64,000 nucleotides of DNA from a virus: positions 1 through 64,000 of the IMG/VR virus record IMGVR_UViG_3300035698_011322. One strand, given 5' to 3'. This document shows, piece by piece, positions 4,241-25,308 of this stretch. Each line of letters begins with the position of its first letter. Positions within the stretch are counted from its first letter, which is position 1. The notes beneath the pieces were generated by a model that did not search any database, had not been told where the DNA came from, and worked only from the letters and a program-made list of their open reading frames with translations. Made by a program: the position numbers and the translations under genes.

Positions 4241-4894
4241 ATGAAATTATGTGATGTTGATTGGAAAAATATGAGAAAAACCGAAAGTGGTAACTTTAGA
4301 GATGTTGTAAAAAAGAAAACATCGAAATATATTGAATCATGTAAGAATTGTGGTGAACCATTTTTAAGACCATCTGGAAGTAAGTGTATATTTTGCAGCA
4401 GATCATGTTCTAAGGGTGGTGAAAATAATCCTATGTATGGCAGAAGTGGTGAGTTAAATCCTTTGTATGGTAAACACCATACAAAAGAAGCAAAGAAGAA
4501 AATGAGTGAACAAAAAAGTGGTGAAAATAATCCTATGTATGGCAGAAGTGGTGAGTTAAATCCTATGTATGGCAAAACTGGTGAGTTAAATCCTGCTTGG
4601 AGAGGTGGTTGTACTGACGACCCTTACTGCCCTATATGGACAAGTGATAAAGAGTTCAGACAATCAATAAGAGATAGAGATAATAATGAGTGCCAAAATC
4701 CAGATTGTTGGGGGAAAGACAAACGAATACATCTACATCATATCAACTATGATAAAATGGATTGCCATCCTGATAATATAATTACTTTATGTGGTAGTTG
4801 TAATGCAAGGGCTAATACTAAAAGAATATGGCATGAATCGTTTTATAATATGATATTAGAAGAACAAGGTAAATTATTAAAACAAGCGGCATAA
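4241..4894 (+). CDS. Free-standing HNH homing endonuclease with NUMOD3-like repeats
   Basis: Repeated GE(N/L)NP(M/L)YG, HHTKEAKKKMS, C-terminal HLHHINYDK..N..TLCGSCN. Confidence 0.88.
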   Translation: MKLCDVDWKNMRKTESGNFRDVVKKKTSKYIESCKNCGEPFLRPSGSKCIFCSRSCSKGGENNPMYGRSGELNPLYGKHHTKEAKKKMSEQKSGENNPMYGRSGELNPMYGKTGELNPAWRGGCTDDPYCPIWTSDKEFRQSIRDRDNNECQNPDCWGKDKRIHLHHINYDKMDCHPDNIITLCGSCNARANTKRIWHESFYNMILEEQGKLLKQAA

Positions 4895-4902
4895 GGATAT
4901 AA

Positions 4903-7392
4903 ATGAATAAAGAGGTAAGAATATCAAAGCACAACCTAATGCAAATCAAAATCAACACCGAGAGTGCTGAATATATTGCTGGCATGAAAGAGTTGTTTAC
5001 TCAGTATGTGGAGGGATTTCAATATACTCCTAAATTTCGTAGCGGAAGCTGGAACGGAAAAATTTGTTTAGTAAGTAGTCCACACAACACTCTACCCTAT
5101 GGACTGTTATTAGATCTTATAAAGTTTCATAAATTGCACTTCTCAAGTTTCCATTTATCTGTGGATGATGATGTTAAAGAGTTCTTCAAGGGCCCAGAGC
5201 TGAAGGTCAAGAATGATCTTTCACTCAAACCAAGATTCTATCAAAAGGAAAGTATACGAATATGCCTAGATAGAACAAAGGGTATCATTAGATCAGCAAC
5301 CGCTTGCCATGCAAAGGGTGATAAAATTATAATATTTGATGGATCTATAAAAAACATAGAAGATATAAAAATAGGTGACTTTGTAATTGGAAAAGATGGT
5401 AAACCAAAAAAAGTTATCAACGTTTTTAATGGTATCGATGATCTATACGAAATAGATCCAAAAAATAATAGAGAATCAATAACTGTAACAGGAAATCATT
5501 TATTACATTTAACCTTCACAAATCGTGGCGGAAAATATAATAAAAGATGGAACTCATTCGAAAATATTTCTGTTGAGGAATATTTAAATAAGAGTAAAAC
5601 ATATAAACATCAATCAAAACTTTATTATAATAAAGAAGAAATAAACTTTTCTCAGAAAAAAATTGATTGTAATCTTTCACCATATTTTATAGGATTGTAT
5701 TTAGGTGATGGTGGAAAAAATGTCTGTTCTGTATATAACATAGATGAAGAATGTATAAACGCTATTTATGAAGAAGCTGACAAATTTAATATGGAAGTTA
5801 TAACTAAGTCATATAGCAAATATGGTTATTTTATTAAAGGATCAAAAAACAAAAGAAATATAATATTCAACGAATTAGAAAAAATAGGAATTATATTTGG
5901 AAGAAAACAAATGTGCGCATGTGAGGATAGATTTATACCAAAAATAATATTTAACCAAAGTATAGATTATAAAAAAGAAGTTCTTGCTGGATTAATTGAT
6001 TCGGATGGATGTTTAACAAACAGAACATATTATGAATATTGTTCAAAATCAAAAAAATTATCTGATGATGTTAAATTATTATCTACTTCATTGGGATTGG
6101 TATGTTCAATGTCGATTAAAGTTGTAAATGATGTGGATTATTATAGAGTGGTAATAATGGGTGATATATTAAGAATACCTGTTAGAATAAAAAGAAAACA
6201 AAATGTTAAAAAATCAACAACAGATGCTTACAAAAGTGGATTCAATGTAAATTATGTTGGGAAAGGGGAATATTATGGCATCCAAGTAGAAGACTCTTTA
6301 TATTTAACAGATGGTGGTATGGTAACTCATAATTCAGGTAAATCACTAGTGATCTCATATATAATGAAAACTCTACTAGAGAACAAAAAGTCTGGTGTCA
6401 ATAGAGTATTATTATCAGTAACGAGAGCTGCACTAGTAGAGCAATTTTATAATGATATGCTAGAGTATGGTATACCAGATAAACTAATAGGTAGGGTGTA
6501 TACCAAAAGAAAAGAATGGGACACACCTATCACTATATCCACATGGCAATCATTAATGAATAATCATGATAAACTTCCTAACTATGATTGTATAATATGT
6601 GATGAGGTACATGGTGCGAAATCTCATGAGCTTAAGAAAATATTAGTCAAGGCAACCAAAGCTAACTATAGATTGGGGTTCACAGGCACACTCCATTCAG
6701 CCGAGCTTGACAACTGGAATACAAAATCGTATTTGGGGCCTGTGTTGAAAGAATACTCATCTGGCTTTCTAGCAGAAAAGGGATTCATAAGTAAATGTAA
6801 TGTCCATATATTAGGAGTAGAATATGAAGCTGGTGATGATATTAAAGGGGATTATAATGAGGTCAAAGATATTGTGTTCACTAATAAATACAGAATCAAT
6901 GTCATTAGTGATCTTATTAATAAGCTTGATCATAATGTTTTACTTCTAGTTGGGTTGGTAGAAAAAGAAGGCAAAGTTCTTCTGGACGAGCTGAAGAGTG
7001 TTAATAAAGAGGTGGTGTTTCTCTCAGGCAGGGATAGTGTTGAGGATCGAGAAAAGTGGCGGAATGAAATGGATAAACGAAATGATATTGCTCTGATTGC
7101 CACATATGGAATATTTGCTGAGGGTATAAATATTCCAAATTTGAAGTACACTATACTTGCATCCCCGTTTAAAGCAAAGATTAGAATACTTCAGTCAATT
7201 GGTAGGAACCTTCGGATGCATGAAAACAAAAAACATGGAGCACATATATTTGATATACATGACCATGTTAAGTATCTTGAGAAGCATGGGGATGTGAGGT
7301 ATAGGTTCTATGATAATGAGAAGTTCGGTATTAATGAATATAATCTAATAGAAGGAACTGAGTTCGATACATCACTTCTTAATCTGAAATAG
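4903..7392 (+). CDS. uvsW: UvsW-like SF2 helicase containing an intein
   Basis: Walker A split as SATA/SGKS, DEVH, GFTGT, QSIGRNLR. Confidence 0.92.
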   Translation: MNKEVRISKHNLMQIKINTESAEYIAGMKELFTQYVEGFQYTPKFRSGSWNGKICLVSSPHNTLPYGLLLDLIKFHKLHFSSFHLSVDDDVKEFFKGPELKVKNDLSLKPRFYQKESIRICLDRTKGIIRSATACHAKGDKIIIFDGSIKNIEDIKIGDFVIGKDGKPKKVINVFNGIDDLYEIDPKNNRESITVTGNHLLHLTFTNRGGKYNKRWNSFENISVEEYLNKSKTYKHQSKLYYNKEEINFSQKKIDCNLSPYFIGLYLGDGGKNVCSVYNIDEECINAIYEEADKFNMEVITKSYSKYGYFIKGSKNKRNIIFNELEKIGIIFGRKQMCACEDRFIPKIIFNQSIDYKKEVLAGLIDSDGCLTNRTYYEYCSKSKKLSDDVKLLSTSLGLVCSMSIKVVNDVDYYRVVIMGDILRIPVRIKRKQNVKKSTTDAYKSGFNVNYVGKGEYYGIQVEDSLYLTDGGMVTHNSGKSLVISYIMKTLLENKKSGVNRVLLSVTRAALVEQFYNDMLEYGIPDKLIGRVYTKRKEWDTPITISTWQSLMNNHDKLPNYDCIICDEVHGAKSHELKKILVKATKANYRLGFTGTLHSAELDNWNTKSYLGPVLKEYSSGFLAEKGFISKCNVHILGVEYEAGDDIKGDYNEVKDIVFTNKYRINVISDLINKLDHNVLLLVGLVEKEGKVLLDELKSVNKEVVFLSGRDSVEDREKWRNEMDKRNDIALIATYGIFAEGINIPNLKYTILASPFKAKIRILQSIGRNLRMHENKKHGAHIFDIHDHVKYLEKHGDVRYRFYDNEKFGINEYNLIEGTEFDTSLLNLK
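5305..6333 (+). mobile_element. Intein with LAGLIDADG endonuclease (343 aa) inserted in the uvsW Walker A motif
   Basis: Begins CHAKGD, ends THN followed by Ser; block B TGNH; GLYLGDG and LAGLIDSDG. Confidence 0.95.
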
Positions 7393-8314
7393 TATTGTAT
7401 TTGAACTGATATTTCTTTTCAAAGTCGAGTTTCTTTTGCCAGAAATCTGGTTTCATAGCCCACCCGCCCAGAAAGTGATCTTTTAACACACCAGCAAATG
7501 ACGATTCTACTAAAAAGTATTCTTTACACCTGAACGTTACCTCTACATATGATGAATGAGCTTTCTTTAAGTTCTTATCAGTATAATCATTTATATAATT
7601 ATTAAGATTGCTTTTTATTCTTTTATACTCTTCATCAGCCTTTGTTTCAACATACTCATCAAATGTTATTTTTGGAACCCATTCAAGATCAAGATCAAGA
7701 ATATCTTCATCAAACTCACCTTCTTCATCCATGACTTTATCCATAGCATCAAATTTGGTCGATTGAAATGTATTTTTATCATTATAATACCATGTTCCAC
7801 CATCGCTATCATCGCCATAATCTTCATAATAATCATTTTCTATTTCATAATCATCATGAAAATTATCATAAATTCTATCTTTATCTGGTGGAATTAAGTT
7901 ATACTCCTCTATAACAGAATATAGATCCTCTATATCTGGATTATAAATAAAACTATACTTCTTGCCTATAGGCAAGAAGATTGCTGCTTTTCCATAATTC
8001 TTTGCAGTACTTTTGTTTGATGTAGTAAACACACCCTCTGTACGCGGTCGCCACTTGAACTTATTATAGAACTCATCATCAAGATATTCCTGCATATCAT
8101 CATCCATATCCTTTGACTGTCTATCTTTTCGTGGCTTAACATGCACCATTTTCTTATTATAAGCTTTGTTAGAGCCTCTATAGAACCAATCCTTTAGGCC
8201 AACACGTTTCATATGCTTTAGAAATGGCATACATTTCTTTTCTAAAACATTGATTATACCATATAGCTCAAGGTCTTCTTGTTCTTTTTCAATTACATAT
8301 TGCTGTAGTTTCAT
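7379..8314 (-). CDS. Putative virion-packaged protein, possible ADP-ribosyltransferase fold
   Basis: N-terminal MKLQQYVIE; YRG...FTTS...VEV pattern; paralog of 11809..12465; acidic insert. Confidence 0.5.
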   Translation of the reverse strand: MKLQQYVIEKEQEDLELYGIINVLEKKCMPFLKHMKRVGLKDWFYRGSNKAYNKKMVHVKPRKDRQSKDMDDDMQEYLDDEFYNKFKWRPRTEGVFTTSNKSTAKNYGKAAIFLPIGKKYSFIYNPDIEDLYSVIEEYNLIPPDKDRIYDNFHDDYEIENDYYEDYGDDSDGGTWYYNDKNTFQSTKFDAMDKVMDEEGEFDEDILDLDLEWVPKITFDEYVETKADEEYKRIKSNLNNYINDYTDKNLKKAHSSYVEVTFRCKEYFLVESSFAGVLKDHFLGGWAMKPDFWQKKLDFEKKYQFKYNTISD

Positions 8315-8315
8315 T

Positions 8316-8594
8316 TTAATAGTCTGTATAATAATCTATTGAAATGTAGTTACCCGATTTATAATAATTAACAGCTGATGGATGAACACCAAATGATTTT
8401 GATATCTCTTTAAGTATATTAAGTGGGTAGACATTTTTATCATCATTATCCTTTTCAATGTTTATTGTAATATTTACCTTTTCACTGGATATTTTTAATG
8501 ATGTCCCATGTTTCTTATTAATCTTATTAATAGCATCAATATACTTTTTGTTTTTGCCTGATTTCGCTTCTACCAAATATTTATCTAATTTCAT
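8316..8594 (-). CDS. Hypothetical protein with capsid-targeting-like N-terminus
   Basis: MKLDKYLVE; GGAGG RBS. Confidence 0.7.
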   Translation of the reverse strand: MKLDKYLVEAKSGKNKKYIDAINKINKKHGTSLKISSEKVNITINIEKDNDDKNVYPLNILKEISKSFGVHPSAVNYYKSGNYISIDYYTDY

Positions 8595-8678
8595 ATTACC
8601 CTCCGTATTTTTTAATTCTTGCTGTGCTGGTTTTTTAAGATTTATGATATTCCCAGTGTACTGGTCTCTCTCTCTCTC

Positions 8679-9308
8679 TCATATAAATAATTTCTCAGTC
8701 AGAACAGCATTACCAGTATTCTTTATATTCTCATATATGTTCTCATATATTTTTGGTATCAATTCTTCACTAACAAAAGCATTACCAGTATTCTTTATAT
8801 TCTCATGTATATTCTCATACACACCAGAAATAGCATTCCATTGTGATTCCGAAAAGTTCATTTCTTTAAGTGAAAATGTGTAATATATTTTATTCTTATA
8901 TTCATGTACATAAACAAAATATTTACTAAATAATTTACTATCGATTCTGAACTTATTTATTATACTATCATAGTATATTTTTAAATATTTTTCAGCATCA
9001 AATTCAAATGATTCTGGTTTCTTTTCCTTTATAAACTGATATATTGCTGTCAGAAGTTTATTAAAAAGTTCTGTTTTTTCTGTTGTAGTAAAATTTCTAA
9101 ATTCTTTTGATAGTTTAATAAGCTCATTTTTATTATCTGATAACACCCAGTATATTATCCATTTTTGTATAAAATTTTCATAAAGCGTTTTAAATAGATA
9201 TTTTTGATTTTTATGTATAATCGTCCATTCATTATTACCAGTTTTGCTAACATCTTTATCAAATTTATTTAATAGCACACCTTCTTTTATGTGGTGTACT
9301 GGTCTCAT
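8679..9308 (-). CDS. Hypothetical protein with capsid-targeting-like N-terminus and C-terminal duplication
   Basis: MRPVHHIKE; YENI(H/Y)ENIKNTGNA twice. Confidence 0.65.
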   Translation of the reverse strand: MRPVHHIKEGVLLNKFDKDVSKTGNNEWTIIHKNQKYLFKTLYENFIQKWIIYWVLSDNKNELIKLSKEFRNFTTTEKTELFNKLLTAIYQFIKEKKPESFEFDAEKYLKIYYDSIINKFRIDSKLFSKYFVYVHEYKNKIYYTFSLKEMNFSESQWNAISGVYENIHENIKNTGNAFVSEELIPKIYENIYENIKNTGNAVLTEKLFI

Positions 9309-9832
9309 ATAAACAATTCCAATAACTCATATATTAATTTAGTTTGTTCCTTATTGAATTTAAATTTTTTAACTGATTTATTTGTCCATGCTTTCAAATC
9401 ATCTTTTAGTTCTTGACTCATTGCTGCCCAATCAGCCATCATTTCAGCAATATCTATATCACTCATTTTATCTACACTACTATGTGCCTGTGGATGATGT
9501 TTGTTTACTCCTATATGATGTTTGGATGCTTTCTTTACTTTATCCTTTATACCATCTGGATATTCAAATCCTCTTCCAGCATTTTTTTCTTTATGCCACC
9601 ACGAAAGCCATATATATGGTATTCTTTCCTCTTTGCTATACTTTGATTTATCATGGTTTTTAGCTCTTGACATTAATTGAACTTTATTTAAATCATCTCT
9701 TTCTTCAGCAATTGTATATAAATTCTTTTGAACTCTTTTGATATGTTCGTTAGTTCTTTTCTCATAAAAATCAACCATCTCTTTTGTTGGTTGGGTTTCT
9801 TTAGCTTCTTTTATATAGTGTGTTAGTCTCAT
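9305..9832 (-). CDS. HD-superfamily phosphohydrolase (DUF5662-like)
   Basis: MRLTHYIKE; H..V, HDKSK, HH..N.HHP, EMMADW. Confidence 0.75.
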   Translation of the reverse strand: MRLTHYIKEAKETQPTKEMVDFYEKRTNEHIKRVQKNLYTIAEERDDLNKVQLMSRAKNHDKSKYSKEERIPYIWLSWWHKEKNAGRGFEYPDGIKDKVKKASKHHIGVNKHHPQAHSSVDKMSDIDIAEMMADWAAMSQELKDDLKAWTNKSVKKFKFNKEQTKLIYELLELFI

Positions 9833-10356
9833 GTGGTTTCCCAGAATATCTCGGCAAATTGCCCATCAAAACCCCATCCCCTTCTCAATTCACTTCCAAA
9901 TGTTTTCTTGAATAATTTCCAGTATTCATTAACACTAACTTTATACCATGGCCACCCATTAACAAAATCTTTATCTGGTGTTCCATTGCCCATATGTGTC
10001 CATACCATATCTGTGTTCTTTAGCTTAATTGTCTTATATAGTTTCTTGAACTTTCTGTTTACTACCTTATTGTCTAATCTCTCCATTTCAATATATGGTA
10101 GTTTATTATACTCTTCTTGGCTCATACCATATTCTTTTTCAAAATCCTTTACTTTTAGCCTATGTTTTTCTTCATCACCCACATATCCACCTAGAAAAGA
10201 CAAATCGGATTTTCCGGCTTGAACAGGTAACAACCATATACCTTTTCTAGCTGGCGCTCTTAATCTTTTTCTATGAGTCTGTTTTTGCCCAGACATCGGC
10301 CCTAAACGAATAAAGAACTTATCCATGCCTTCTTTTATGTAGTTTTTTAATTTCAT
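9829..10356 (-). CDS. Hypothetical protein with capsid-targeting-like N-terminus
   Basis: MKLKNYIKE start with ATGA overlap. Confidence 0.7.
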   Translation of the reverse strand: MKLKNYIKEGMDKFFIRLGPMSGQKQTHRKRLRAPARKGIWLLPVQAGKSDLSFLGGYVGDEEKHRLKVKDFEKEYGMSQEEYNKLPYIEMERLDNKVVNRKFKKLYKTIKLKNTDMVWTHMGNGTPDKDFVNGWPWYKVSVNEYWKLFKKTFGSELRRGWGFDGQFAEIFWETT

Positions 10357-10880
10357 ATATCCCACAAATCCTTTAATTTCTTTATTGTGTCACTTGTGTT
10401 CTTATGTAGTATACCGATCCCGCCTTTGGATCTCCATTGCTTGATATTTCTTTTACTATCATCTATGAGGACAGAAGATTTACTAGCATGGTTCTGTTTC
10501 TCTATACTAAGTGTAATGAAGGCCGTCTTGAGAAAGCCAGATCCAAGCTCTTTACTGATCCAATCTCTCTTGCCCTTTATGGCTGAGGTAACAGTCTTTG
10601 GTCTAGCGGTCAATATAGTTGGCTCATACTTCTTTATATAGTTCCACAGTTGCTTGCCATCACTAGTCCATGGCAGTTCAGACCAGAATGTTGCGCCCAT
10701 CTCAGCAACCTTAGTCCAAACATCTTCTGACTTCTTTTTAGTAATCCATTTTTTCCAACCATCTTTTATGTTTGGATCGATTTTATCACTCATACCTTGT
10801 AGAAAGTCAACCAGCACACCATCAAGATCACAATAAATTTTATATTCAATTTCTTCTTTTATGTAGTTAGACAGTCTCAT
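10353..10880 (-). CDS. HAD-family 5'(3')-deoxyribonucleotidase-like phosphatase
   Basis: DLDGVLVDF, ILTAR, LIDD; MRLSNYIKE. Confidence 0.88.
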   Translation of the reverse strand: MRLSNYIKEEIEYKIYCDLDGVLVDFLQGMSDKIDPNIKDGWKKWITKKKSEDVWTKVAEMGATFWSELPWTSDGKQLWNYIKKYEPTILTARPKTVTSAIKGKRDWISKELGSGFLKTAFITLSIEKQNHASKSSVLIDDSKRNIKQWRSKGGIGILHKNTSDTIKKLKDLWDI

Positions 10881-11203
10881 TTGAGTTTCCTTTTGATGGA
10901 TCGTAGTCCTAGCTCCATCTTCTTTCTAGCGGATGGATTCGCTGTATGGATTTTTATTTTGGGGCATTTGAATTCTTTGTTCGTGAATACTTGTTTCTCT
11001 ATCCATAACAATACATCATTTCCAGTTCCGATTTTACGATCATCACCTAAATCATGGTCAAGACTTATCTCGATAACATCGCCTTTTTTCAATAAATCTA
11101 TAGCTTGAGTCGGTGTCTTAACACCAATCCACCCACTAGGTGATGTTCTTTCATCATCCAGATATACCTTTATACCTTCATTTATATAATGAGTTAGTCT
11201 CAT
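10877..11203 (-). CDS. Cyclic-phosphate-processing receiver-domain protein
   Basis: YLDDER, ISLDHDLG, IHTANP; MRLTHYINE. Confidence 0.82.
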   Translation of the reverse strand: MRLTHYINEGIKVYLDDERTSPSGWIGVKTPTQAIDLLKKGDVIEISLDHDLGDDRKIGTGNDVLLWIEKQVFTNKEFKCPKIKIHTANPSARKKMELGLRSIKRKLK

Positions 11204-11331
11204 TTGAATATTCCTCTTATACGATACCCACCTATATTTCGATCCCATTCAAATGCAACATCTCCAGCAAACACAGAACCACTTACCAAAAATATTAAAG
11301 CAACAACTGTACTAAACAGTTTTAATTTCAT
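11200..11331 (-). CDS. 43-aa ORF with signal peptide (possible truncated FN3-like remnant)
   Basis: Manual translation MKLKLFSTVVALIFLVSGSVFAGDVAFEWDRNIGGYRIRGIFK; ATGA-coupled to the next gene. Confidence 0.5.
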   Translation of the reverse strand: MKLKLFSTVVALIFLVSGSVFAGDVAFEWDRNIGGYRIRGIFK

Positions 11332-11812
11332 CAAAGCCCTCTTCTTTAGTTGGTGGTTGATACTTAGCCTTCATTGATTTTATAACATCATCTGGTATAA
11401 CCTTGCCAGTGTCTTTTCCACGTTTGTCTAATCTCTTCTTTAACTCAGATCCACCAACTTTGAATATGATAGCTATTTTCTTATAGTCCTCTGAGGCACT
11501 CTTCATAAAATAACTTCTTTGTTTTACAGTCATATTAGTATTATCAACTATTATATTTCTTCCTTTACTTAGGGCCTTGTCAAACTCTTTTCTAGTATTA
11601 CCTAGAGTATTATCTCTACCCGCTTTAACAAATGCCTCTGAATATGTTATTTTATTCTTCTTCGCAATCTTCTCAACATATAAATCATTAGACACAATAT
11701 TATATTTTCCCTTGAGCTTCGAGATATATGTGGACTTACCGGATGCTGGAAGGCCAATCAGTAGTATTATTTCCTTCTGTGCCTCTTCGTTTATATAGTT
11801 GCTTAGTCTCAT
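11312..11812 (-). CDS. P-loop kinase (AAA_33 / polynucleotide-kinase type)
   Basis: GLPASGKST, IVDNTN, R..KR, PTKEEGF; MRLSNYINE. Confidence 0.88.
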   Translation of the reverse strand: MRLSNYINEEAQKEIILLIGLPASGKSTYISKLKGKYNIVSNDLYVEKIAKKNKITYSEAFVKAGRDNTLGNTRKEFDKALSKGRNIIVDNTNMTVKQRSYFMKSASEDYKKIAIIFKVGGSELKKRLDKRGKDTGKVIPDDVIKSMKAKYQPPTKEEGFDEIKTV

Positions 11813-12465
11813 AATAATACGTCCTCTACGAACTTATTATACCTTTCTCGCATTGTTAGTCCGCCTTTTGGATGGTACATTTGATCCAAAAACGATCCTT
11901 GAATGATTATATACTTCTTACAATTTAGAACAATCTCGCCCATTGTATTTAAAGCATTACATAAATCCTTATCAGTATACATCCTAGAAACCTTTTCTGA
12001 CCATTTTTTTCTATAGTGAAGCTCTTCTTTTGAATTCTTTATTCCAGCTGGTTTATAATTAGTGCTCTGCCATATAAAAAAATCTTCAATTCTTGATGAC
12101 CATACATAATTGAAGTCACCTATAGGAAAAACTAAACCAGCACCAGTTCCATATCCACTACCCAATATTTTAGGTGGGAAAGTAAACAGACCCCCGCTTC
12201 TTGGTTTCCATTTAAATTTCTTAAAGAACTCTATATCAACGGCTGCCTGTATTTCCCTTGGAGTATCAACCGGTACTCTGTTAGATCTGGTGCTCTTTAT
12301 CTCTACCAAGTCTTTTGCTACATATCCTCTTCTTACATATTTGTTATTACAACTCTTTACAGCATTAAGCCATGGTTTGCAATTAGCTTTTGTATACTTG
12401 ATAAAGAAATCGTACTTGATCTGTGGTTTTTTATTAGCTTCGTTCAAATATGAGTTGAGTTTCAT
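11809..12465 (-). CDS. Paralog of 7379..8314, possible ADP-ribosyltransferase fold
   Basis: RRG, KFKWKPRSGGLFT, FPIG, GEIVLNCKKY; MKLNSYLNE. Confidence 0.5.
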   Translation of the reverse strand: MKLNSYLNEANKKPQIKYDFFIKYTKANCKPWLNAVKSCNNKYVRRGYVAKDLVEIKSTRSNRVPVDTPREIQAAVDIEFFKKFKWKPRSGGLFTFPPKILGSGYGTGAGLVFPIGDFNYVWSSRIEDFFIWQSTNYKPAGIKNSKEELHYRKKWSEKVSRMYTDKDLCNALNTMGEIVLNCKKYIIIQGSFLDQMYHPKGGLTMRERYNKFVEDVLL

Positions 12466-13281
12466 TTATTTGATTCCTTGAATTTGCTTTGATAGTCTAC
12501 CCATAGTTCTCTTCATGGTTTTAGTCAAAAGCTTTTCTCTAATCATTCTCTTTATGAAGAAAGGGAAGAAATTATCCATGTGTCTAACCCACTTTCGAAC
12601 ATCTGGAATCTCTTTCATAAACTCATCCCATGTTAGTTTATTATACTCTTTATCACCAAGTTGCTTTCTAACTTCATCAACAGCATGTATTATTGCTTGT
12701 ATTTCTGCTGTCATATGGAAACCCAATCCTTCTTTTTCTTGTCTTATATCATCTCGCTTAGGTTCAGAGAAATACATATTATGCTTTACATCATCAATCC
12801 AATGTGTCAATTCATGTCTTATGTTGGATTTTATATTAATCTCTGTTGATACACCAAAGAAAAAGTCAAATACATTCTTTTTATCAATATCCTCTAACTC
12901 TCCAGGTTTTACAAAATGATCAAATAAAGATATTGTTGGGCCAATGAATATAACATTTTTATCAGGATAGTAAAAACCCCCATGTGATGTAAAACCAACA
13001 AATATATTTACAGGCTTTTCTTTATTTATTTCTTTAATAATAGGCGATTTCAATGAACTAGATTTGATTCTTTTGAAAACCCATATCTCATCACCACCAA
13101 CCTTGACTTTCTTTCCGGCCTTTCGGACATCACTTAAAACTTTTTTGAGTGTTTTTATATCACGTTTCTTAACACTATTGTTTATTTGTTTGACAAACTT
13201 ATCTATAGGCTTGTAGATCAAGTCTATATCACTCTTATCAACATCAATAATACTATTTTTTATATATTTGTCAAATCTCAT
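12466..13281 (-). CDS. Putative zincin metallopeptidase
   Basis: HELTH plus downstream EIQA; MRFDKYIK. Confidence 0.6.
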   Translation of the reverse strand: MRFDKYIKNSIIDVDKSDIDLIYKPIDKFVKQINNSVKKRDIKTLKKVLSDVRKAGKKVKVGGDEIWVFKRIKSSSLKSPIIKEINKEKPVNIFVGFTSHGGFYYPDKNVIFIGPTISLFDHFVKPGELEDIDKKNVFDFFFGVSTEINIKSNIRHELTHWIDDVKHNMYFSEPKRDDIRQEKEGLGFHMTAEIQAIIHAVDEVRKQLGDKEYNKLTWDEFMKEIPDVRKWVRHMDNFFPFFIKRMIREKLLTKTMKRTMGRLSKQIQGIK

Positions 13282-13964
13282 TAGAGTATTTTATCCAGCT
13301 TCATCGATTTCAGTTTGGATTTATATGATTCGAGTCTCTTCAAAAACTTCTTGTATTCTTTACCCTCACCCGAAAAAACCATTTTAAACCATTTATATAT
13401 ACCACCATGTTTACCATACTTCAGAAATTCTATTGCGGCTTGAAATGCAAAGGAATCAATCTCCACATCTGATCCAACATATTTCCAAGTATCTTCGGCT
13501 TCTAATTCCGATGGATCAATAAAAACAGCTTTAAGATCCGATACACTTATTTGAGTCAAGTGCTTAAATTCATGCGATAAAATATTCAAAAGATCTGAGA
13601 AGAATTGGTTCTTTCTTATATCCAAGAACATCTTATCTTTACCAGGTTTTGCAAATCTCTTAAAGAACTCTGAAAGACCTGTTTGTAAATGAACTGTTAT
13701 TGATAGTTCTCCACCACCTATTTCCACTTCGGCACCTGACATATATCTATATATTTTATGCTTCACTCTACCAATGTCAAATATAATAGGTAGATCTTTG
13801 TCCTTAAATAATATGTTTAGGATTTCTGTAATCTCTTTATCACTTGTTATCCATTTATTGCTTTTCAGAAACTTATATAAGAGTTTAATTTTGGGTTTTA
13901 TTATATACGCAACAAGTTTAATTTCTTCGGCTGTTGCTTCAACCATATATTGTTTTAATCTCAT
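13281..13964 (-). CDS. Putative zincin metallopeptidase
   Basis: HEFKH plus Y....EIDSFA; MRLKQYMVE. Confidence 0.6.
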   Translation of the reverse strand: MRLKQYMVEATAEEIKLVAYIIKPKIKLLYKFLKSNKWITSDKEITEILNILFKDKDLPIIFDIGRVKHKIYRYMSGAEVEIGGGELSITVHLQTGLSEFFKRFAKPGKDKMFLDIRKNQFFSDLLNILSHEFKHLTQISVSDLKAVFIDPSELEAEDTWKYVGSDVEIDSFAFQAAIEFLKYGKHGGIYKWFKMVFSGEGKEYKKFLKRLESYKSKLKSMKLDKIL

Positions 13965-14899
13965 TTATGCCATTCCCATGCTGTTTTTATAATTGTGTTT
14001 ATGTCACTCTGTTTCGGCTCCCAGCCAAGCTCGTTTTTTAACTTCGATGGATCGGCAATCAAAGTGTCAGGCTCGTTTTTTCTTCTACCAACCTCTATTA
14101 TATTTATTCTTTTGCCTGAGATTTCTCTGACCTTATCGATTATTTCTCTTACAGAATATCCTCTATTATTTCCTATGTTATATACTGTGTATCCACTCTT
14201 CAAGGCATCAATTGCCAAAATATGAGCATTAGCAATATCATTAACATGGATGTAATCCCTTACCCCTGTTCCATCTGGTGTATCATAATCTGTTCCATAT
14301 ATTTTGAATTCTTTTGATATCATTAATAACGGTATAATATGTGTTTCGGGGGCATGTAACTCACCAATATTTCCACCAGATCCCGCCGCATTAAAATATC
14401 TCAAAATAACCGAATTCATGCCATCACAGTCTTTAAGAACATTTTCTATTATAAGCTTTGTCTTACCATAAACATTCTCTGGATTACAAGCTGTTTCTTC
14501 TTTTATAGGAATTTCTTTTGGATTACCATATACAGAGGCTGATGATGAGAAAATAAAATTCTTGACCTTATTCTCCATCATAACATATAACAGATTAATT
14601 GTATTCGACACATTATTCTTGTAGTATTTTAAACTACTTGTATCAGATTCACTTACAATCGAAAATGCCGCAAAATGCATAACAATATCAATACTATACT
14701 GTTTAAATAATCTTCTTAATAATCCAACATCACCGAAATCACCTATTATAGTTCTTGTGTCTTGTAGAAGATGATCACTACCTGTTGAAAAGTTATCTAA
14801 TACAGTAACATCATAATCCTTTGTCTCCAATAACATCTTTACAACATGTGATCCAATATAACCAGCACCACCTATTACCAATATATTTTTATACTTCAC
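13961..14899 (-). CDS. galE: UDP-glucose 4-epimerase
   Basis: GGAGYIGSH, FSSSASVYG, YGKTK, RYFNAAG, DGTGVRDYIHV; GTG start chosen. Confidence 0.95.
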   Translation of the reverse strand: MKYKNILVIGGAGYIGSHVVKMLLETKDYDVTVLDNFSTGSDHLLQDTRTIIGDFGDVGLLRRLFKQYSIDIVMHFAAFSIVSESDTSSLKYYKNNVSNTINLLYVMMENKVKNFIFSSSASVYGNPKEIPIKEETACNPENVYGKTKLIIENVLKDCDGMNSVILRYFNAAGSGGNIGELHAPETHIIPLLMISKEFKIYGTDYDTPDGTGVRDYIHVNDIANAHILAIDALKSGYTVYNIGNNRGYSVREIIDKVREISGKRINIIEVGRRKNEPDTLIADPSKLKNELGWEPKQSDINTIIKTAWEWHK

Positions 14900-15029
14900 C
14901 CTTTGCCCTTCTCTCTTCATAATTTACCCATTTAACATATAAATGACCACATTTATGGCATATGCCTTGACCACTTTTTTGTTTCCATTGGTGCTCACAT
15001 TTCTGACACTTGAATGTATTATACTGCAT
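14889..15029 (-). CDS. 46-aa zinc-ribbon protein
   Basis: Manual translation with CQKC...CHKC. Confidence 0.6.
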   Translation of the reverse strand: MQYNTFKCQKCEHQWKQKSGQGICHKCGHLYVKWVNYEERRAKGEV

Positions 15030-15726
15030 ACCACGCATCGACTCCTTTATTAATTTTCTCAAGTGACAGAATAGTTGGAGATAGATACTTTTCTCCAGTT
15101 TCTATGAGTGTCTTCTTATGATCAATTCCAACTGGATTTTGTATTGGAGAGTTATAGAATCCAGCCATGAATTTATATGCGTTGACAATTACTTCATTTG
15201 TGAGCATGCCCTCATTATTATCTATCTCCATCCATGTTGAAAACTTCCCTCTATAGAAGTTCTTAGCAGCGTTGACATTCTTATGTATTTGTCTAATAAA
15301 ATCAACATCGACTTGTCGCTCTCTCTTTGAGGCTCGCTCGATTGCTGTTTCCAATGATGTGTTGATAAATATTATTGCAACATCATAGCCAAAGTATTCA
15401 AGTATTCCAACTCGCTTTAAAACTGCTGATGTTTTATTGGCAGTACCATCAACAGCTAATGGTAACATAGAATTTATATATAAGGTAAGTTGGTTCTTGT
15501 TTATTGTTTTAACTTTTAAACTTATCTTACCCCAATCCGTATTCCACCATTTCTTGAAAAGTGGAAATGATTTATCGGTGTTGACTATACGAGGTTCAAT
15601 AGATCCAGATTTTACTTTTGATAATGTATATGATTTACCTGATCCACTACTACCACACATAAAACAAGCTTTAAAAATTCCGCGATCCATAATCCCTTCA
15701 GTTATATAGTCTTCTAGTCTACTCAT
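15019..15726 (-). CDS. P-loop kinase (zeta/AAA_33-like)
   Basis: GSSGSGKS, VDGT, R...RER; MSRLEDYITE. Confidence 0.8.
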   Translation of the reverse strand: MSRLEDYITEGIMDRGIFKACFMCGSSGSGKSYTLSKVKSGSIEPRIVNTDKSFPLFKKWWNTDWGKISLKVKTINKNQLTLYINSMLPLAVDGTANKTSAVLKRVGILEYFGYDVAIIFINTSLETAIERASKRERQVDVDFIRQIHKNVNAAKNFYRGKFSTWMEIDNNEGMLTNEVIVNAYKFMAGFYNSPIQNPVGIDHKKTLIETGEKYLSPTILSLEKINKGVDAWYAV

Positions 15727-16046
15727 TTAATAACTCCGAATAATTGTTTTTTGTATGGGTGTTTTTTAGTATCTGTTTTGATTTCTTTTTTCGACTTCCC
15801 AGATCCTCTCCAATACGTGCTATTATATGATTGATCTTTAATTGAAGCACAGAACCCTTTGGCTTTCTGTGTATCGAAGCCTTCTTTACTACTCATTCTT
15901 AAGACACAGGCATCAAAGAAACCATGCTCAGTAGGATCTTTACCAATTGTCTTGGCAAACTTTGCTATGGAGTTCTCTGTCCATCCCTTAGAGGCAATTG
16001 GAGCCTCGTCTAATTCATCCACCATTAGCTTTTCAAAGAATTTCAT
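15723..16046 (-). CDS. Hypothetical protein
   Basis: 107 aa, coupled to neighbours. Confidence 0.7.
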   Translation of the reverse strand: MKFFEKLMVDELDEAPIASKGWTENSIAKFAKTIGKDPTEHGFFDACVLRMSSKEGFDTQKAKGFCASIKDQSYNSTYWRGSGKSKKEIKTDTKKHPYKKQLFGVIK

Positions 16047-16416
16047 TTATCTTTTTCTTATCCTCCTCTTCATCATCTTCTTCTGGTGGATCTTCTTCTG
16101 GTGGATCTTCTTCTGGTGGATCTTCTTCTGGTGGATCTTCTTCTGGTGGATCTTCTTCACCATCTTCTGGAAATGGCCCAACGGCCTCTATTTCCTTTTC
16201 AACATTATTCCACTTTTCGAGTTTATCTTCCAGATCAGATAATATAGCCTCTTCTGCATCATCATTTGGATCACCAACCTTCGAAATGGCATTTTCTATA
16301 GATTTCTTATTCTGGCTGATCACTCTCTCAGAATACTTTTCACCAATCTCCGGCTCATCAATATCAAGAGCTGATTGCACAGAATCCTCTTCTCTTATAT
16401 ATCTATTAAATCTCAT
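16033..16416 (-). CDS. Acidic protein with EEDPP repeats, possible head core/internal protein
   Basis: MRFNRYIRE; 15-nt tandem repeats ~16077-16160. Confidence 0.7.
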   Translation of the reverse strand: MRFNRYIREEDSVQSALDIDEPEIGEKYSERVISQNKKSIENAISKVGDPNDDAEEAILSDLEDKLEKWNNVEKEIEAVGPFPEDGEEDPPEEDPPEEDPPEEDPPEEDPPEEDDEEEDKKKINEIL

Positions 16417-16432
16417 AACTCACTCCTTCCCC

Positions 16433-16969
16433 TTATAGTGCCAGAATCAATAACAATATACTACCAATTGTTATTAAATACATTCCACCTCTATTTATCA
16501 TATTATCTGTTTTATGTTCATATTTTTCATCTCGATACATATTTTCTGAATTGATCCATAGCTCTCTATATGATATAACCTTCTCACGTTCTAGCATACT
16601 TAATTCTTTTAGAGCATTTATTTCATCTATATATGTATTTGTTATTGATTCATTAACCAATAATATTTCTTTATATGTCTTCGCTAACTTAACCACAGCA
16701 CCAACCTTAGCATATTCTTTAGGTGCTAGTAAGATATGAGTACCTTCTTCTATACTACCAACAACTTCATAACTCAATTCACCTGTTTTCTTTATATATA
16801 TGGGGAAAAGTTTATCTGGTTTTGGTAGATTATCTAAATCACTCTTTATATCATAAGAAGGTGTTTCATTAATTTGTAAATCTGGTGGTTTATATGGTGT
16901 AAATGACTTAGGGGCACAAGAAACAAACAAGAAAAGGAAGAGTATACACAATACTATTCTTGATCTCAT
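16433..16969 (-). CDS. Lipoprotein with C-terminal TM helix, spanin candidate
   Basis: Lipobox FVSC after hydrophobic signal; hydrophobic C-terminus. Confidence 0.6.
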   Translation of the reverse strand: MRSRIVLCILFLFLFVSCAPKSFTPYKPPDLQINETPSYDIKSDLDNLPKPDKLFPIYIKKTGELSYEVVGSIEEGTHILLAPKEYAKVGAVVKLAKTYKEILLVNESITNTYIDEINALKELSMLEREKVISYRELWINSENMYRDEKYEHKTDNMINRGGMYLITIGSILLLILAL

Positions 16970-17313
16970 ATATCTTCCCAATCATCATTCATTTGTTTCT
17001 CTATTTCAGCAAGCTTATCTTCTTTTAAAACTACTTGTATGTCTCTTGAAGCCTCTTGAAGTATAACTTTTATCTTTCCTTTTGTTTCCTCTGAGGAAAT
17101 TTCAGCAACTTCTATCTGTTTCATTATTATATCTTGCTCTTTGGTTTTAGCTGCAATTTCTCCCTGTTTAGTTTTATTTAAAAACTTATTCTTAAACGCA
17201 TCTATAATTTTTTCTTTCTTGTTTCTACCAAAGAACTTTGTTAATATTAAAGTTACTAAAGCAATTAAACACGCACCACCACCACCTATGAACAGAATAC
17301 TTGATATATCCAT
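16966..17313 (-). CDS. Membrane-anchored coiled-coil protein, i-spanin candidate
   Basis: N-terminal TM, helical remainder. Confidence 0.55.
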   Translation of the reverse strand: MDISSILFIGGGGACLIALVTLILTKFFGRNKKEKIIDAFKNKFLNKTKQGEIAAKTKEQDIIMKQIEVAEISSEETKGKIKVILQEASRDIQVVLKEDKLAEIEKQMNDDWEDI

Positions 17314-17330
17314 TTTATTTCACACTCCTC

Positions 17331-17693
17331 TTATACATTTACATTTTCAATTTTTTTTGCTTTTTTATCATCTGATGCTTCGTTAATTTCTTTTAGTTTA
17401 CGAACTTTATAAACCTCACGAACGGCTATAATCGAACCAGTTAAAGTAATATTAAACGTACACCATGCTATAAAGGTATCTGTCAGAACCTTTATTTGAC
17501 CCAATAATGCAGCAATTAATTCTGGTTTGACAGCCATCAAGCTTATTGCGATTTCCATAAACCCAAATTGTGACATACAGATATATATAAAAATACCCGT
17601 TGACGCCAGAAATGGTAAAAGAAAAAACCAAACCTTTACTGATGCCAAATTTTGAAGAACCTTTTTACTAAACAATCTAAACATTTCTTTCAT
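17331..17693 (-). CDS. Holin-like membrane protein
   Basis: 2-3 hydrophobic segments, charged C-terminus, first gene after a late promoter. Confidence 0.5.
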   Translation of the reverse strand: MKEMFRLFSKKVLQNLASVKVWFFLLPFLASTGIFIYICMSQFGFMEIAISLMAVKPELIAALLGQIKVLTDTFIAWCTFNITLTGSIIAVREVYKVRKLKEINEASDDKKAKKIENVNV

Positions 17694-17723
17694 TATCTTA
17701 CCTCCACTATATATTTCTGATAC

Positions 17724-17731
17724 TATTTATA
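17724..17731 (-). promoter_or_regulatory. T4-type late promoter TATAAATA heading the lysis and internal-protein cluster
   Basis: Exact TATAAATA ~30 nt upstream of ATG 17693. Confidence 0.75.
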
Positions 17732-17743
17732 TAGTTTGGGCAT

Positions 17744-17780
17744 AAAAAAGAGAAATACAAATAAATCATATTTCTCTTTT
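17744..17780 (-). terminator. Intrinsic terminator after the ubiquitin-like operon
   Basis: AAAAGAGAAATA/TATTTCTCTTTT hairpin with U-tract. Confidence 0.6.
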
Positions 17781-17811: not shown

Positions 17812-18696
17812 TTATATAAGATTAACTTCCGGGCCTTCAAAGTCAGTACTAATTTTCTCCATCTCCGACATCAAATCCATTTCCTCTTCTAATGTCTGTT
17901 CTTTAGAAAAATCAAGTTCTTCGATTTCAGCATCAATCTCTTCAACTTCAGCCTCTGTTAAAACAGTAGGCAAACCTGTTTTTAGATTTATATTACGAGG
18001 CACTTGTTTACCCATAAAAACACCTGGTTTAGACCATAATTCATTCTTAGCACGTGTATCCCATGACCCACCAGGATAGTTACTATAAACAACATTTGTA
18101 TCATATGTTTTTTTCTTAATTTTCTCTTTAGCGGCTTTAATAAAATCTTCTTTGTCCAAAATACATTCAGTTCTAATCTTCACAATACTCTCAATGATTT
18201 TATAAGCACCACATGGAGTTGCCCATCTTACATGACCATTTATACCATCTTTTGAAATACAAAGTGATATGTTATGATTCTGATTAATATACTTATCATC
18301 TGTCTGTGAAAATGAATTACCCATTGTATGGTGTGAATGTATAACACCAACTACTGGCAATTCATTAAACTCTTTACACATAATATTATCAACACTTCCA
18401 GTGCTTATCTCTTGATCTGGAATAAAGATATCAGTTATTTCAATAGTTTCACCAAAATCACCAAGAAGATAAGCCAACCACTCAATGTTTGAATATTCTT
18501 CCATAAGTGCTTCAATCTTTTCTTTTACCAATGGTTGAATCCACACAATAAGATTCTCAGGTGCCTTACCACAATCTGTTAAACACTCTACCTCGGTTTC
18601 CCAATAATCTGGTTCTTTATCAGAGGCAATAACATTGATTTTATTTTGTACATGCATATTATTTTTCCCTTTCTTCTTTCTATTCCTTCTTGACAT
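17812..18696 (-). CDS. JAB/MPN+ metalloprotease (Ubl processing/deconjugation)
   Basis: EWLAYL...IHSHHTMGNSFSQTD (E...HxH...S..D). Confidence 0.88.
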   Translation of the reverse strand: MSRRNRKKKGKNNMHVQNKINVIASDKEPDYWETEVECLTDCGKAPENLIVWIQPLVKEKIEALMEEYSNIEWLAYLLGDFGETIEITDIFIPDQEISTGSVDNIMCKEFNELPVVGVIHSHHTMGNSFSQTDDKYINQNHNISLCISKDGINGHVRWATPCGAYKIIESIVKIRTECILDKEDFIKAAKEKIKKKTYDTNVVYSNYPGGSWDTRAKNELWSKPGVFMGKQVPRNINLKTGLPTVLTEAEVEEIDAEIEELDFSKEQTLEEEMDLMSEMEKISTDFEGPEVNLI

Positions 18697-18706
18697 TTTT
18701 ATTCCT

Positions 18707-19285
18707 TTATATATACAATTCAATAAGATTTGTGCTAATTTCTTTATCATAGTATTTCATTATTTTATTATCAGTAAGAGCGGCTATAATACTAGCAGGA
18801 ACAACCCATGATGAAATTTCAGTATATCCATCTTCAGCTTCTCCCCACTCGGCCACTCTATTATTGATAGAAATATGTTCACCATTATACCCCGCCTTAA
18901 CATATTTCGCACCAATGTTGTCAGCAATTCCTTGATTTGTCATTTGTGATTTTATATTATCAGTACAATCGACAACCCAATCTGTTTTCTCAGATGTCAA
19001 TTCAGAATACTTAAACGGAAAACTATGAATTGTACAATCGGGTCTAATGGACTCAACCATCATTCTTACAACATCCGTTTTATTTTTCCCAATAAACTTT
19101 AAAGGAATATCTATTCTATTAAGATTATGAGCCTCAAATATATCTGGGTCCCATACACATATATTGTCTATACCTGATAAAACAGCAAACTTTGATACCC
19201 AGAACCCAATTCCACCAACGCCACATACGCTTATACTTATATTCTGATTTAATTTTAAACTTTCTTGACGATCATAAAATGACAT
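18707..19285 (-). CDS. Minimal ThiF/E1 adenylating enzyme
   Basis: YDRQ, GVGGIG, DPD.FEAHNLNR, K, VDCTDN; no CxxC pairs. Confidence 0.9.
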   Translation of the reverse strand: MSFYDRQESLKLNQNISISVCGVGGIGFWVSKFAVLSGIDNICVWDPDIFEAHNLNRIDIPLKFIGKNKTDVVRMMVESIRPDCTIHSFPFKYSELTSEKTDWVVDCTDNIKSQMTNQGIADNIGAKYVKAGYNGEHISINNRVAEWGEAEDGYTEISSWVVPASIIAALTDNKIMKYYDKEISTNLIELYI

Positions 19286-19303
19286 TATTTACTTCCTTTC
19301 TAT

Positions 19304-20152: not shown

Positions 20153-20176
20153 TATTATATCCTTTTACATTTGATT

Positions 20177-20212
20177 TTCACTCCCTAGTGCTCTTAAATA
20201 CTAGGGAGTGAA
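20177..20212 (-). promoter_or_regulatory. Perfect 13-bp hairpin between Ubl and E2-like genes
   Basis: TTCACTCCCTAGT-N10-ACTAGGGAGTGAA; no U-tract on the coding strand. Confidence 0.7.
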
Positions 20213-20219
20213 GGTGTAA

Positions 20220-24674: not shown

Positions 24675-25265
24675 TCAATTTTTTATTACTTCATTAACAA
24701 AATCATATAGTGGCAAATCTTCCATTTCCTCAATCTTAATAGACCACATATCACACTCTTTGCTTTCTTTTATATCACCAGCCAGTTTCTTTATATCAGA
24801 GGAAATTATCTTACCACTATCTTGTGATATCTTTACATCCATATATGAATCTTCTTCCTTATATTCTAACTTACCAGATAATACCATACTTGCCCACTTT
24901 TGTAAATAAGATTTTGATTTACTTGATAGGTTAGATAAATTGATACTCCAGAAGTTTCTATATCTTCTCAATCTCATCCACCCCTTCTTGAACAAAGACA
25001 ACATTATTTGCTCTCTAGCTTTGCCTTCAATCCCCATTTTTTCATTATAAAAATCATATATATATTCTATGAATTCTTTATTCAGTCCGAACTTCTTAGG
25101 ATACCTTATAATCGTTTGTATATGAGTTGTTGGAGCATAAACAATTTCACCCTTTGGTGAAATAAAGAATGCTGCCATAAACACACCTTCCTCAAGAATA
25201 CTTTCAAAAACAAATGTTCTCTTACCTTTTATTGAAGTTTCTTTTAAATAATTTTCGAATTTCAT
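24675..25265 (-). CDS. Hypothetical protein with capsid-targeting-like N-terminus
   Basis: MKFENYLKE; TATAAATA at 25300-25307 upstream. Confidence 0.72.
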   Translation of the reverse strand: MKFENYLKETSIKGKRTFVFESILEEGVFMAAFFISPKGEIVYAPTTHIQTIIRYPKKFGLNKEFIEYIYDFYNEKMGIEGKAREQIMLSLFKKGWMRLRRYRNFWSINLSNLSSKSKSYLQKWASMVLSGKLEYKEEDSYMDVKISQDSGKIISSDIKKLAGDIKESKECDMWSIKIEEMEDLPLYDFVNEVIKN

Positions 25266-25308
25266 TATTATTTTCTCTCTATGACTTTTAATTGACTCAT
25301 ATTTATAA

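Follow-up and report, generated by a model that had tools for sequence, protein, structure and literature searches.

A recurrent nine-residue N-terminal tag on the unrelated enzymes of a phage operon resembles the capsid-targeting sequence of T4

We analysed a stretch of 64 kb (hereafter the window) that is the first part of a 74.7-kb viral contig, IMG/VR record IMGVR_UViG_3300035698_011322, estimated to be around 31% complete. On its minus strand, an operon of 19 tightly packed genes (17693..7379) has 13 members that begin with the same short N-terminal tag, whose core motif is M-[RK]-[LF]-x-x-[YF]-[IL]-x-E. The observation of this shared tag is real and goes far beyond chance. Phage T4 packages three small internal proteins and Alt through a short N-terminal address, and we consider it likely that the tag of the window is a propeptide of the same type as the T4 capsid-targeting sequence (CTS), which would load enzymes onto the prohead core and would be cut after Glu9. 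By analogy, the head of the phage most likely contains the tagged enzymes. Targeting to the virion is the best-supported step and cleavage is less well supported, while injection and a function in the host are what we infer beyond them.

A six-frame scan of the window with the pattern M[RK][LFIP]..[YHF][ILMV].[EN] gave 13 matches, all of them on the minus strand: 12 in the operon (8314, 8594, 9308, 9832, 10356, 10880, 11203, 11812, 12465, 13281, 13964 and 16416) and one at 25265. All 13 were at the first ATG or at a plausible start of open reading frames (ORFs) of 92-311 aa, and no match was found within any ORF or in any non-coding frame. Furthermore, a 10-residue variant, MSRLEDYITE, starts the gene at 15019-15726. 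A first-pass annotation of this DNA had described a tag shared by about 14 coupled genes and lacking in galE; both descriptions stand, since galE (13961-14920) has no tag. It had also asked whether early genes carry the motif equally often, and none of the 40 plus-strand (early-side) genes at 37-64 kb is tagged, versus 13 of the 19 genes of the operon (Fisher P ~2e-13).

Regarding the anatomy of the tag, we compared 65 tagged proteins, no two of them identical, taken from 19 loci (the window plus 18 related IMG/VR loci), with families defined by BLAST of the protein bodies only. These proteins fall into at least 26 BLAST-unrelated families. In the logo of the 59 canonical tags M1 is followed by R/K at position 2 (100%), L/F at position 3 (98%), Y/F at position 6 (98%), L/I at position 7 (93%) and E at position 9 (97%); position 8 is mostly N or K, and conservation is nil from residue 10 on. 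The T4 CTS is MKTYQEFIAE (PMC8442874), in which suppressor analysis linked residues 4 and 7 to targeting and residues 8 and 10 to processing, gp21 cutting after Glu (PMC9026906 section 2.6). Like the CTS, the tag is at the extreme N-terminus, has around 10 residues and starts with Met and then Lys or Arg. Its L/F3 and Y/F6 form an i/i+3 pair, as the T4 targeting residues do, and I/L7-x-E9 forms an i/i+2 pair, as the T4 processing residues do. In both cases the sequence is fused to unrelated proteins and the cargo is hypervariable among relatives. However, the tag has nine residues, with one fewer before the first hydrophobic position, while the variant M[ST]RLxxYIxE (for example MSRLEDYITE) is in exact T4 register. 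The cargo differs too: here one operon encodes around 14 proteins of 90-310 aa, most of them enzymes, whereas the cargo of T4 is three small basic proteins. Moreover, the phage of the window is only distantly T4-like.

The tag also behaves as a separate unit. Among 38 homologs of the DUF5662 protein, those with at least ~47% identity mostly have the tag, joined to the conserved body (PTKEM..FYEKRT) by a linker that varies from 2 to 10 residues, whereas most of the remoter homologs begin straight at the body (MKQPTKEM..., MSTEEMVKYF...). The Pfam domains of the tagged proteins begin 10-15 residues after Met1, and six metagenomic homologs of the 11809-12465 protein (36-56% identity) all keep the tag. 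Judging by these alignments, the tag is a portable modular add-on, separable from the cargo domain. A second recurrent start was observed in small proteins, in which ..(I/L)(E/D/x)KYL(N/T/M)E follows Met at a distance of a few residues, as in MGKIEKYLNE and MNIIKTIDKYLME; it was seen at L006:7216-7476, L006:16185-16463, L012:2728-3096, L016:4768-5103, L008:9116-9322 and L021:10094-10312. This start may belong to a propeptide related to the tag, with more residues ahead of the motif.

The link with experimental data is given by the Agrobacterium jumbo phage Atu_ph07, which was the sole hit in a tblastn search with the proteins of phrog_11975, the family to which the window paralogs 7379-8314 and 11809-12465 both belong. 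Eleven consecutive genes of Atu_ph07 begin M[RK][WL]xQLxE. A DNA pattern for M[RK]WxxLxE found 13 matches in its genome, all at annotated starts, versus 0 in the reversed control, and a looser pattern added MRLFQLLE and three MRLIDLLE genes. The virion proteome of this phage, obtained by electrospray ionisation tandem mass spectrometry, comprises 131 proteins of 714 coding sequences (CDS) (Supplementary Table S5 of Attai et al. 2018, PMC6102473), and we matched genes to the rows of the table by CDS order and molecular weights, which agree within 0.01 kDa. All 17 annotated tagged CDS (M[RK][WL]xxLxE: gp43, gp53-63, gp381, gp408, gp482, gp561 and gp672) were in the virion list, with 12-52% coverage, and none of the 17 was outside it. 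The hypergeometric P is 1.2e-13 for the 17 proteins and 4e-5 to 2e-4 when they are counted as 5-6 BLAST-independent families. A raw count of 14 out of 14 was discounted as pseudo-replication, because it represented 2 BLAST families; the looser search later added three unrelated tagged virion proteins. Atu_ph07 resembles the window in its run of consecutive genes that share an N-terminal tag ending in L-x-E, in one cargo family homologous to the two window paralogs and in the zeta-toxin-like kinase domain of gp53, comparable to that of 15019-15726. It also has a T4-type head module with a gp21 homolog, gp204. On the other hand, its tag is an 8-mer, M[RK][WL]xxLxE, and a single family of paralogs accounts for most of its tagged proteins. 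The words 'N-terminal' and 'paralog' are absent from the text of the Atu_ph07 paper (PMC6102473), where the tagged proteins are listed as hypothetical virion proteins, and therefore the tag apparently went unnoticed by its authors.

Two further genes of Atu_ph07 were observed. In gp407 (MF403008 303755-304783), which is in the virion list, the tag MKLINLLE is at an internal Met 11 residues in, so its start is apparently misannotated. An ORF at MF403008 315526 (-) starts MRLFDLFE and, because it is unannotated, it was outside the database of the mass spectrometry search.

Presence in the virion might also have a different explanation, in which the tag recruits proteins to the virion or to the assembly pathway, where they would be scaffold-associated, structural or decoration proteins, or would be degraded after assembly, instead of being injected effectors. 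The tagged genes of several relatives adjoin tail sheath, baseplate or head genes, the Atu_ph07 data show virion presence alone, and the T4 core proteins gp67 and gp68 are likewise processed and mostly expelled (PMC9026906), all of which would agree with such a role. Nevertheless, the cargo consists mostly of enzymes without a plausible structural role (kinases, a nucleotidase, cREC and, in relatives, a CCA-adding enzyme), its turnover between close relatives is unlike that of structural genes, and the Atu_ph07 proteins are kept in mature particles with the sequence coverage given above. We consider this explanation rather unlikely. The phiKZ-like giant phages (201phi2-1, phiKZ, SPN3US) offer a parallel for delivery, since many of their head-internal ejection or inner-body proteins are cut after Glu by a gp21-related protease and delivered to the host (PMC5694885; PMC9026906). 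However, instead of a uniform 9-residue tag they have long, heterogeneous propeptides with an S/A/G-x-E motif, and these phages belong to another lineage.

The prohead proteases themselves bear on the proposed cleavage after Glu9. Proteases of PF03420 are encoded by those tag-bearing contigs whose length suffices (G005, G006, G007, G009 and G010) and by the tag-bearing phages RsoM2USA, XacN1 and Atu_ph07. The C-terminal motif of the tag is found at the N-terminus of several of them: MKELKLITE in G005, and MKKGFLITE and MKLITE in G006 and G010. Those of XacN1 and Atu_ph07 begin MKQAILVE and MSTKLTE respectively, and a tag of Atu_ph07 ends in QLTE. The N-terminus of T4 gp21 is similarly described as 'LIE-9', with a suggested CTS-like role (PMC9026906). 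Furthermore, ALLE-G occurs close to the N-terminus of the major capsid protein in both Atu_ph07 and RsoM2USA. Regarding RsoM2USA ORF379, the protease (MG752970, near 259178), we observed that the frame is open for around 35 codons upstream and reads ..IKQQILIEE.., which resembles the start of the XacN1 protease; the annotated start is apparently wrong.

The 9-mer itself is not limited to the window and its uncultured relatives. RsoM2USA and XacN1, the closest cultured relatives, carry it as MRLKQFLME, MKFSDYILE, MRFVQYLIE and MRFTSYLIE. The homologs of the 15019-15726 kinase in RsoM2USA (ORF254, MTTFKEYLLE, 42% identity) and in the gp53 region of Atu_ph07 have related tags; HTVC008M has a homolog of this kinase and zero matches to the tag. 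A stringent DNA pattern for MRLxxY[IL]NE matched 99 IMG/VR stretches, when around 14 were expected by chance (an estimate from the information content of the pattern), and the general pattern gave 42 matches in five large contigs versus 2 in the control.

The tag could in principle be an address to another destination or fate, for instance to a membrane site or a replication factory, or it could act as a degron for a protease or chaperone. The operon opens with three membrane or lipoprotein genes, and a tag-like start (MKFENYINRE, at 67062) is found in a nucleotide-metabolism cluster. Against such an address there are the residue-by-residue match to the T4 CTS and the gp21 cleavage motif, the presence of the motif at the protease N-termini and the finding of all tagged Atu_ph07 proteins in virions, so we regard it as very unlikely. 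The gene with the MKFENYINRE start lies outside the window (G000 67062-67730, +; L039:3062-3730) and has Glu at position 10. Its match to the S-adenosylmethionine lyase family (PF23780, E 8e-6) is below threshold, and its neighbours are a thymidylate-synthase-like gene and a 1586-aa ribonucleotide reductase gene with intein and LAGLIDADG domains.

Several points weigh against the reading of the tag as a capsid-targeting propeptide. First, 13 of the 17 tagged Atu_ph07 proteins are paralogs, and therefore the fair count is that of the 5-6 families. The Atu_ph07 virions were purified with polyethylene glycol, and the list of 131 proteins includes likely contaminants. Presence in these virions does not by itself place the proteins in the head, nor does it show cleavage or injection. 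The tag of Atu_ph07 is an 8-mer with Trp, and its link to the window is by analogy and by the homology of one cargo family. Among the phages with the 9-mer, the mass spectrometry of RsoM2USA covered ten gel bands only and is uninformative on the tagged ORF254, ORF256 and ORF258, and the virion list of XacN1 is a figure, with text and supplements silent on the tagged ORF314 and ORF352. In the window two tags are degenerate, MRPVHHIKE and MRFDKYIKN (the latter without the terminal Glu). Finally, the contig carries no head, scaffold or protease gene, and a PF03420 profile search of this fragment gave no hit. The first-pass annotation had proposed a T4-like capsid-targeting tag on unrelated enzymes. 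The match of residues to the CTS, the modular add-on and the 17 of 17 Atu_ph07 proteins favour it, and the support for packaging is well-founded yet indirect, because the contig is so incomplete and lacks head genes.

The codons of the tag belong to these points as well. They are strongly biased to A-ending forms (AGA 8/8, AAA 12/12, ATA 9/9, GAA 12/12), and the A3 fraction is 0.59 in the tags versus 0.43 in other gene starts and 0.35 in gene bodies. This excess goes beyond the usage of the genome, and therefore some nucleotide-level constraint, or gene conversion and homogenisation, acts beside the selection at the protein level. Together with the ATGA by which most tagged genes overlap the preceding gene, it would fit a shared start that is a nucleic-acid or translation feature, that is, an A-rich unstructured initiation region for coupling, kept similar by gene conversion between neighbours and without any targeting role. 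However, the substitutions in the tag are conservative at the protein level (R/K, L/F, Y/F, I/L/M/V) and the codons of Leu and Tyr are varied. The untagged galE and zinc-ribbon ORF are coupled in the same way, whereas the stand-alone gene at 25265 is tagged. Atu_ph07 has the same pattern with other residues and codons, and its proteins are in virions. Furthermore, the tag is kept in homologs from many contigs while linker and body diverge. For these reasons we hold a pure translation feature to be highly improbable. All these alternatives are less likely than the CTS-type propeptide.

Regarding expression, a TATAAATA box, similar to T4 late promoters, precedes the operon, and a second one (25300-25307) is 42 nt upstream of the tagged start at 25265 (MKFENYLKE), so that the stand-alone tagged gene does have a promoter box of its own, as the first-pass annotation had stated. 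Both sites (17731 and 25307) are correctly positioned for their genes, which would agree with late expression. Nevertheless, the contig, which is AT-rich, shows no enrichment of the octamer (20 seen versus 17.7 expected), another point against the proposed reading, and we rejected its enrichment as evidence of late promoters. Late timing of the tagged genes is therefore no more than plausible. A single late promoter for the array is likewise plausible but has no statistical backing. As a correction to the first-pass annotation, untagged membrane or lipoprotein genes occupy the first three places behind the promoter. Of the 18 junctions of the operon, 11 overlap, 6 of them by 4 nt (ATGA), and gaps longer than 17 nt were found at just two. 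Scans for sigma-70 promoters and terminators inside the array gave background level. The hairpin upstream of the first box probably terminates the preceding Ubl/E1/JAB operon; our terminator scan demands at least 3 G-C pairs and therefore it did not list this hairpin.

The features of the operon and of the stand-alone tagged gene are collected in Table 1, where L006 is a close syntenic relative and L016 another related locus.

Table 1. Genes and signals of the tagged operon and of the stand-alone tagged gene (window coordinates; TM, transmembrane segment; ART, ADP-ribosyltransferase)
Feature	Coordinates	Strand	Basis or remarks
AT-rich hairpin and T-run	17744..17780	-	just upstream of the TATAAATA box; read by eye
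TATAAATA, T4-late-promoter-like box	17724..17731	-	intergenic, 38 nt upstream of 17693; then GGAGG, ATG
Untagged 120-aa membrane protein, first operon gene	17331..17693	-	L006 79% identical; no Pfam hit
Untagged 115-aa protein, N-terminal TM and charged tail	16966..17313	-	ORF call, L006 comparison
Untagged 178-aa lipoprotein-like protein (LFVSC lipobox), C-terminal TM	16433..16969	-	L006 82% identical
MRFNRYIRE-tagged acidic protein, (PPEED)n repeats	16033..16416	-	L006 ortholog tagged too
107-aa protein, start MKFFEKLMVDE, no canonical tag; may be a divergent variant	15723..16046	-	
Zeta-toxin/AAA_33-type P-loop kinase, tag variant MSRLEDYITE	15019..15726	-	Pfam Zeta_toxin 1.7e-7
Untagged 49-aa CxxC...CxxC zinc-ribbon-like ORF	14889..15038	-	absent from L006
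Untagged NAD-dependent epimerase (GalE-like), inside the array	13961..14920	-	Pfam Epimerase 5e-50; untagged in L006
MRLKQYMVE-tagged protein with HEFKH	13281..13964	-	tagged orthologs in L006, L016
Degenerate-tag (MRFDKYIKN) protein with HELTH	12466..13281	-	absent from L006
MKLNSYLNE-tagged phrog_11975 member	11809..12465	-	possible ART-like fold; homologous to Atu_ph07 virion paralogs
MRLSNYINE-tagged AAA_33/KTI12-like P-loop kinase	11312..11812	-	AAA_33 1.5e-22; domain from residue 16
MRLTHYINE-tagged cREC_REC protein	10877..11203	-	Pfam 2e-25; in-frame 15-codon upstream extension to 11248
MRLSNYIKE-tagged HAD-superfamily NT5C-like 5'-nucleotidase	10353..10880	-	2.8e-7; domain from residue 15
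MKLKNYIKE-tagged 175-aa protein	9829..10356	-	no family assigned; L006 ortholog 81% identical, tagged
MRLTHYIKE-tagged DUF5662 protein, H..HD..HH..D motifs	9305..9832	-	Pfam 1.2e-30; absent from L006
Degenerate-tag (MRPVHHIKE) 209-aa protein	8679..9308	-	no family assigned; absent from L006
MKLDKYLVE-tagged 92-aa protein	8316..8594	-	
MKLQQYVIE-tagged 311-aa long phrog_11975 paralog, last operon gene	7379..8314	-	overlaps end of convergent helicase gene
Stand-alone MKFENYLKE-tagged gene (start 25265) and TATAAATA box	24675..25307	-	no family match

Among the cargo identities proposed by the first-pass annotation, the two P-loop kinases, the HAD/NT5C protein and the cREC protein are backed by Pfam. 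The supposed HD phosphatase is the DUF5662 protein, whose HD character is presumed from its motifs. Regarding the two supposed zincins, HExxH is present in both, but neither the HELTH (12466-13281) nor the HEFKH protein (13281-13964) matched any Pfam, PHROG or NCBIfam family, and the zincin call is suggestive at most. Searches of NCBIfam and of PDB sequences gave no added annotation for the DUF5662, HExxH or family-less proteins. We also observed a 44-aa ORF at 11200-11334 (-), with a signal-peptide-like start (MMKLKLFSTVVALIFLVSGSVFAG), which occupies the 108 nt that separate the kinase gene from the cREC gene. It may be a deletion remnant, because L006 has three extra genes there, one of them with a signal peptide.

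The two phrog_11975 proteins had been described as ART-like. The AlphaFold model of this family (pLDDT 88) found nothing in a Foldseek search against PDB at E<=0.001. With VIA-align the top match was the uncharacterised BC2332 (Z 6.4), followed at Z 2.4-3.7 by DarT, Arr, exotoxin A, cholix toxin, CopC, AvrPphF and PARP, the true ARTs being in this lower range (around Z 3-4). R46-G47, F94 and E177 are invariant across 9 phrog_11975 sequences and are ART-compatible; however, there is neither an S-T-S consensus nor (Q/E)-x-E, and no Pfam ART hit. An ART-like identity is thus suggestive in the model, a lead and not a result. The T4 protein Alt is a head-packaged ART that is processed by gp21, losing a short N-terminal propeptide, and is injected with the DNA (PMC9026906). 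The window paralogs resemble Alt in their invariant R-G ... F-T ... E positions and in a weak structural similarity to the ART fold, but they have no ExE or QxE motif and their best structural match, BC2332, is an uncharacterised protein. No sequence similarity between phrog_11975 and Alt was detected.

The comparison with L006 shows how the cargo changes. Backbone identity is 57-89% and the order is the same (clamp, Ubl, E2-like, E1, JAB, two membrane proteins, lipoprotein, array and convergent helicase), while the two differ by entire tagged genes. The genes 12466-13281, 9305-9832 and 8679-9308 and the zinc-ribbon ORF are found only in the window, and at least 6 genes are found only in L006, including a tagged 477-aa CCA-adding tRNA nucleotidyltransferase. 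These indels span from start codon to start codon. The cREC gene of L006 (L006:12362-12751) has tandem tags, an intact MKLSKYLTE and a decayed MRLVDYLIV ten residues later, and the tag-coding DNA is 69% identical pairwise versus 33% in the flanks. With nearly identical 27-nt starts on every cargo gene, gains and losses of whole genes could take place at the tag boundaries. The suggestion that the tags act as recombination joints thus fits the gene-precise indels and the tandem-tag scar, which are not proof of it, and from these sequences cargo swapping at the tags is plausible. Tagged cargo of the relatives (L006:14028-15461, L012:6870-7700, L016:3297-4721, L002:2544-3689) was observed to include CCA-adding tRNA nucleotidyltransferases and an Amidoligase_2 protein. 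The former have a PolyA_pol head and an RNA-binding domain, and some of them HD as well. Since tags of relatives head CCA-adding enzymes, the cargo has an RNA-repair flavour.

In the mechanism that we propose, the tagged enzymes would bind the scaffolding core of the assembling prohead late in infection, through the hydrophobic positions 3 and 6. A gp21-type prohead protease would then cut after Glu9 (P3 = I/L, P1 = E) and the mature enzymes would stay in the head alongside the DNA. More speculatively, they would be ejected into the next host and be active there before any phage gene expression, as a kit in which kinases and phosphatases are joined by a cyclic-phosphate-processing domain, by HExxH proteins and by possible NAD-using enzymes. 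As for the purpose of this kit, we tentatively put forward a reading that we still find doubtful: the clade might pre-load its capsid with a changeable set of RNA-end and nucleotide enzymes, injected against RNA-cleaving or nucleotide-signalling host defences before expression, with cargo exchanged at the 27-nt tag starts. In the window this set would comprise the PNK-like kinase, cREC, the HAD and HD-type phosphatases, the zeta-like kinase and the possible NAD-using enzymes, to which the relatives might add the CCA-adding tRNA nucleotidyltransferase and the amidoligase.

Concerning the setting of the array, the phage is an uncultured giant phage and distantly T4-like, with a clamp loader around 32% identical to those of XacN1, PA5oct and pelagiphages, and the array had no megablast match among cultured phages. 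The three untagged leading genes (16433-17693, -) are kept in L006 at 60-82% identity; the first of them (17331..17693) encodes a protein with multiple transmembrane segments. They look like a holin/spanin-type lysis cassette, the last one resembling a unimolecular spanin. Upstream, the Ubl / E2-like / E1 / JAB operon (17812-20559, -) recurs in L006 (L006:1572-4246) with the same gene order and 67-89% sequence identity, and there too it sits directly upstream of the tagged array; a similar set is apparently present at L017:4458-6772. At the other end, the convergent helicase gene (4903-7392, +) encodes 829 aa versus 487 aa in L006. The additional ~340 aa run from a Cys to ...THN-S, with LAGLIDADG-like blocks (LYLGDGG, GLIDSDG) inside, and therefore they are likely an intein with a homing endonuclease. 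Just upstream of this gene there is a NUMOD3 endonuclease-like gene (4241-4894).

The mechanism is a variant of a known one. The novelty lies in the 9-residue form of the tag and its spread over distant T4-like jumbo phages, in a large and mainly enzymatic cargo, and in the link to a virion proteome. We found no prior description of such arrays in phages other than T-even in the open-access literature, subscription papers such as the early T-even work on the IP locus being outside this search. Our results suggest that the same address, in a 9-residue form, loads a dozen or more enzymes per genome in T4-like jumbo phages that are widespread and include both cultured and uncultured ones. Through the proteome of Atu_ph07 the tag pattern gains experimental support, and existing raw mass spectrometry data could settle the cleavage. 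From genomes alone, a rule of this kind could point to proteins that are inside the virion and possibly injected, and the tag might be a natural portable means of loading foreign proteins into non-T4 capsids. Moreover, the tagged proteins are candidates for first-strike anti-defence enzymes of these phages.

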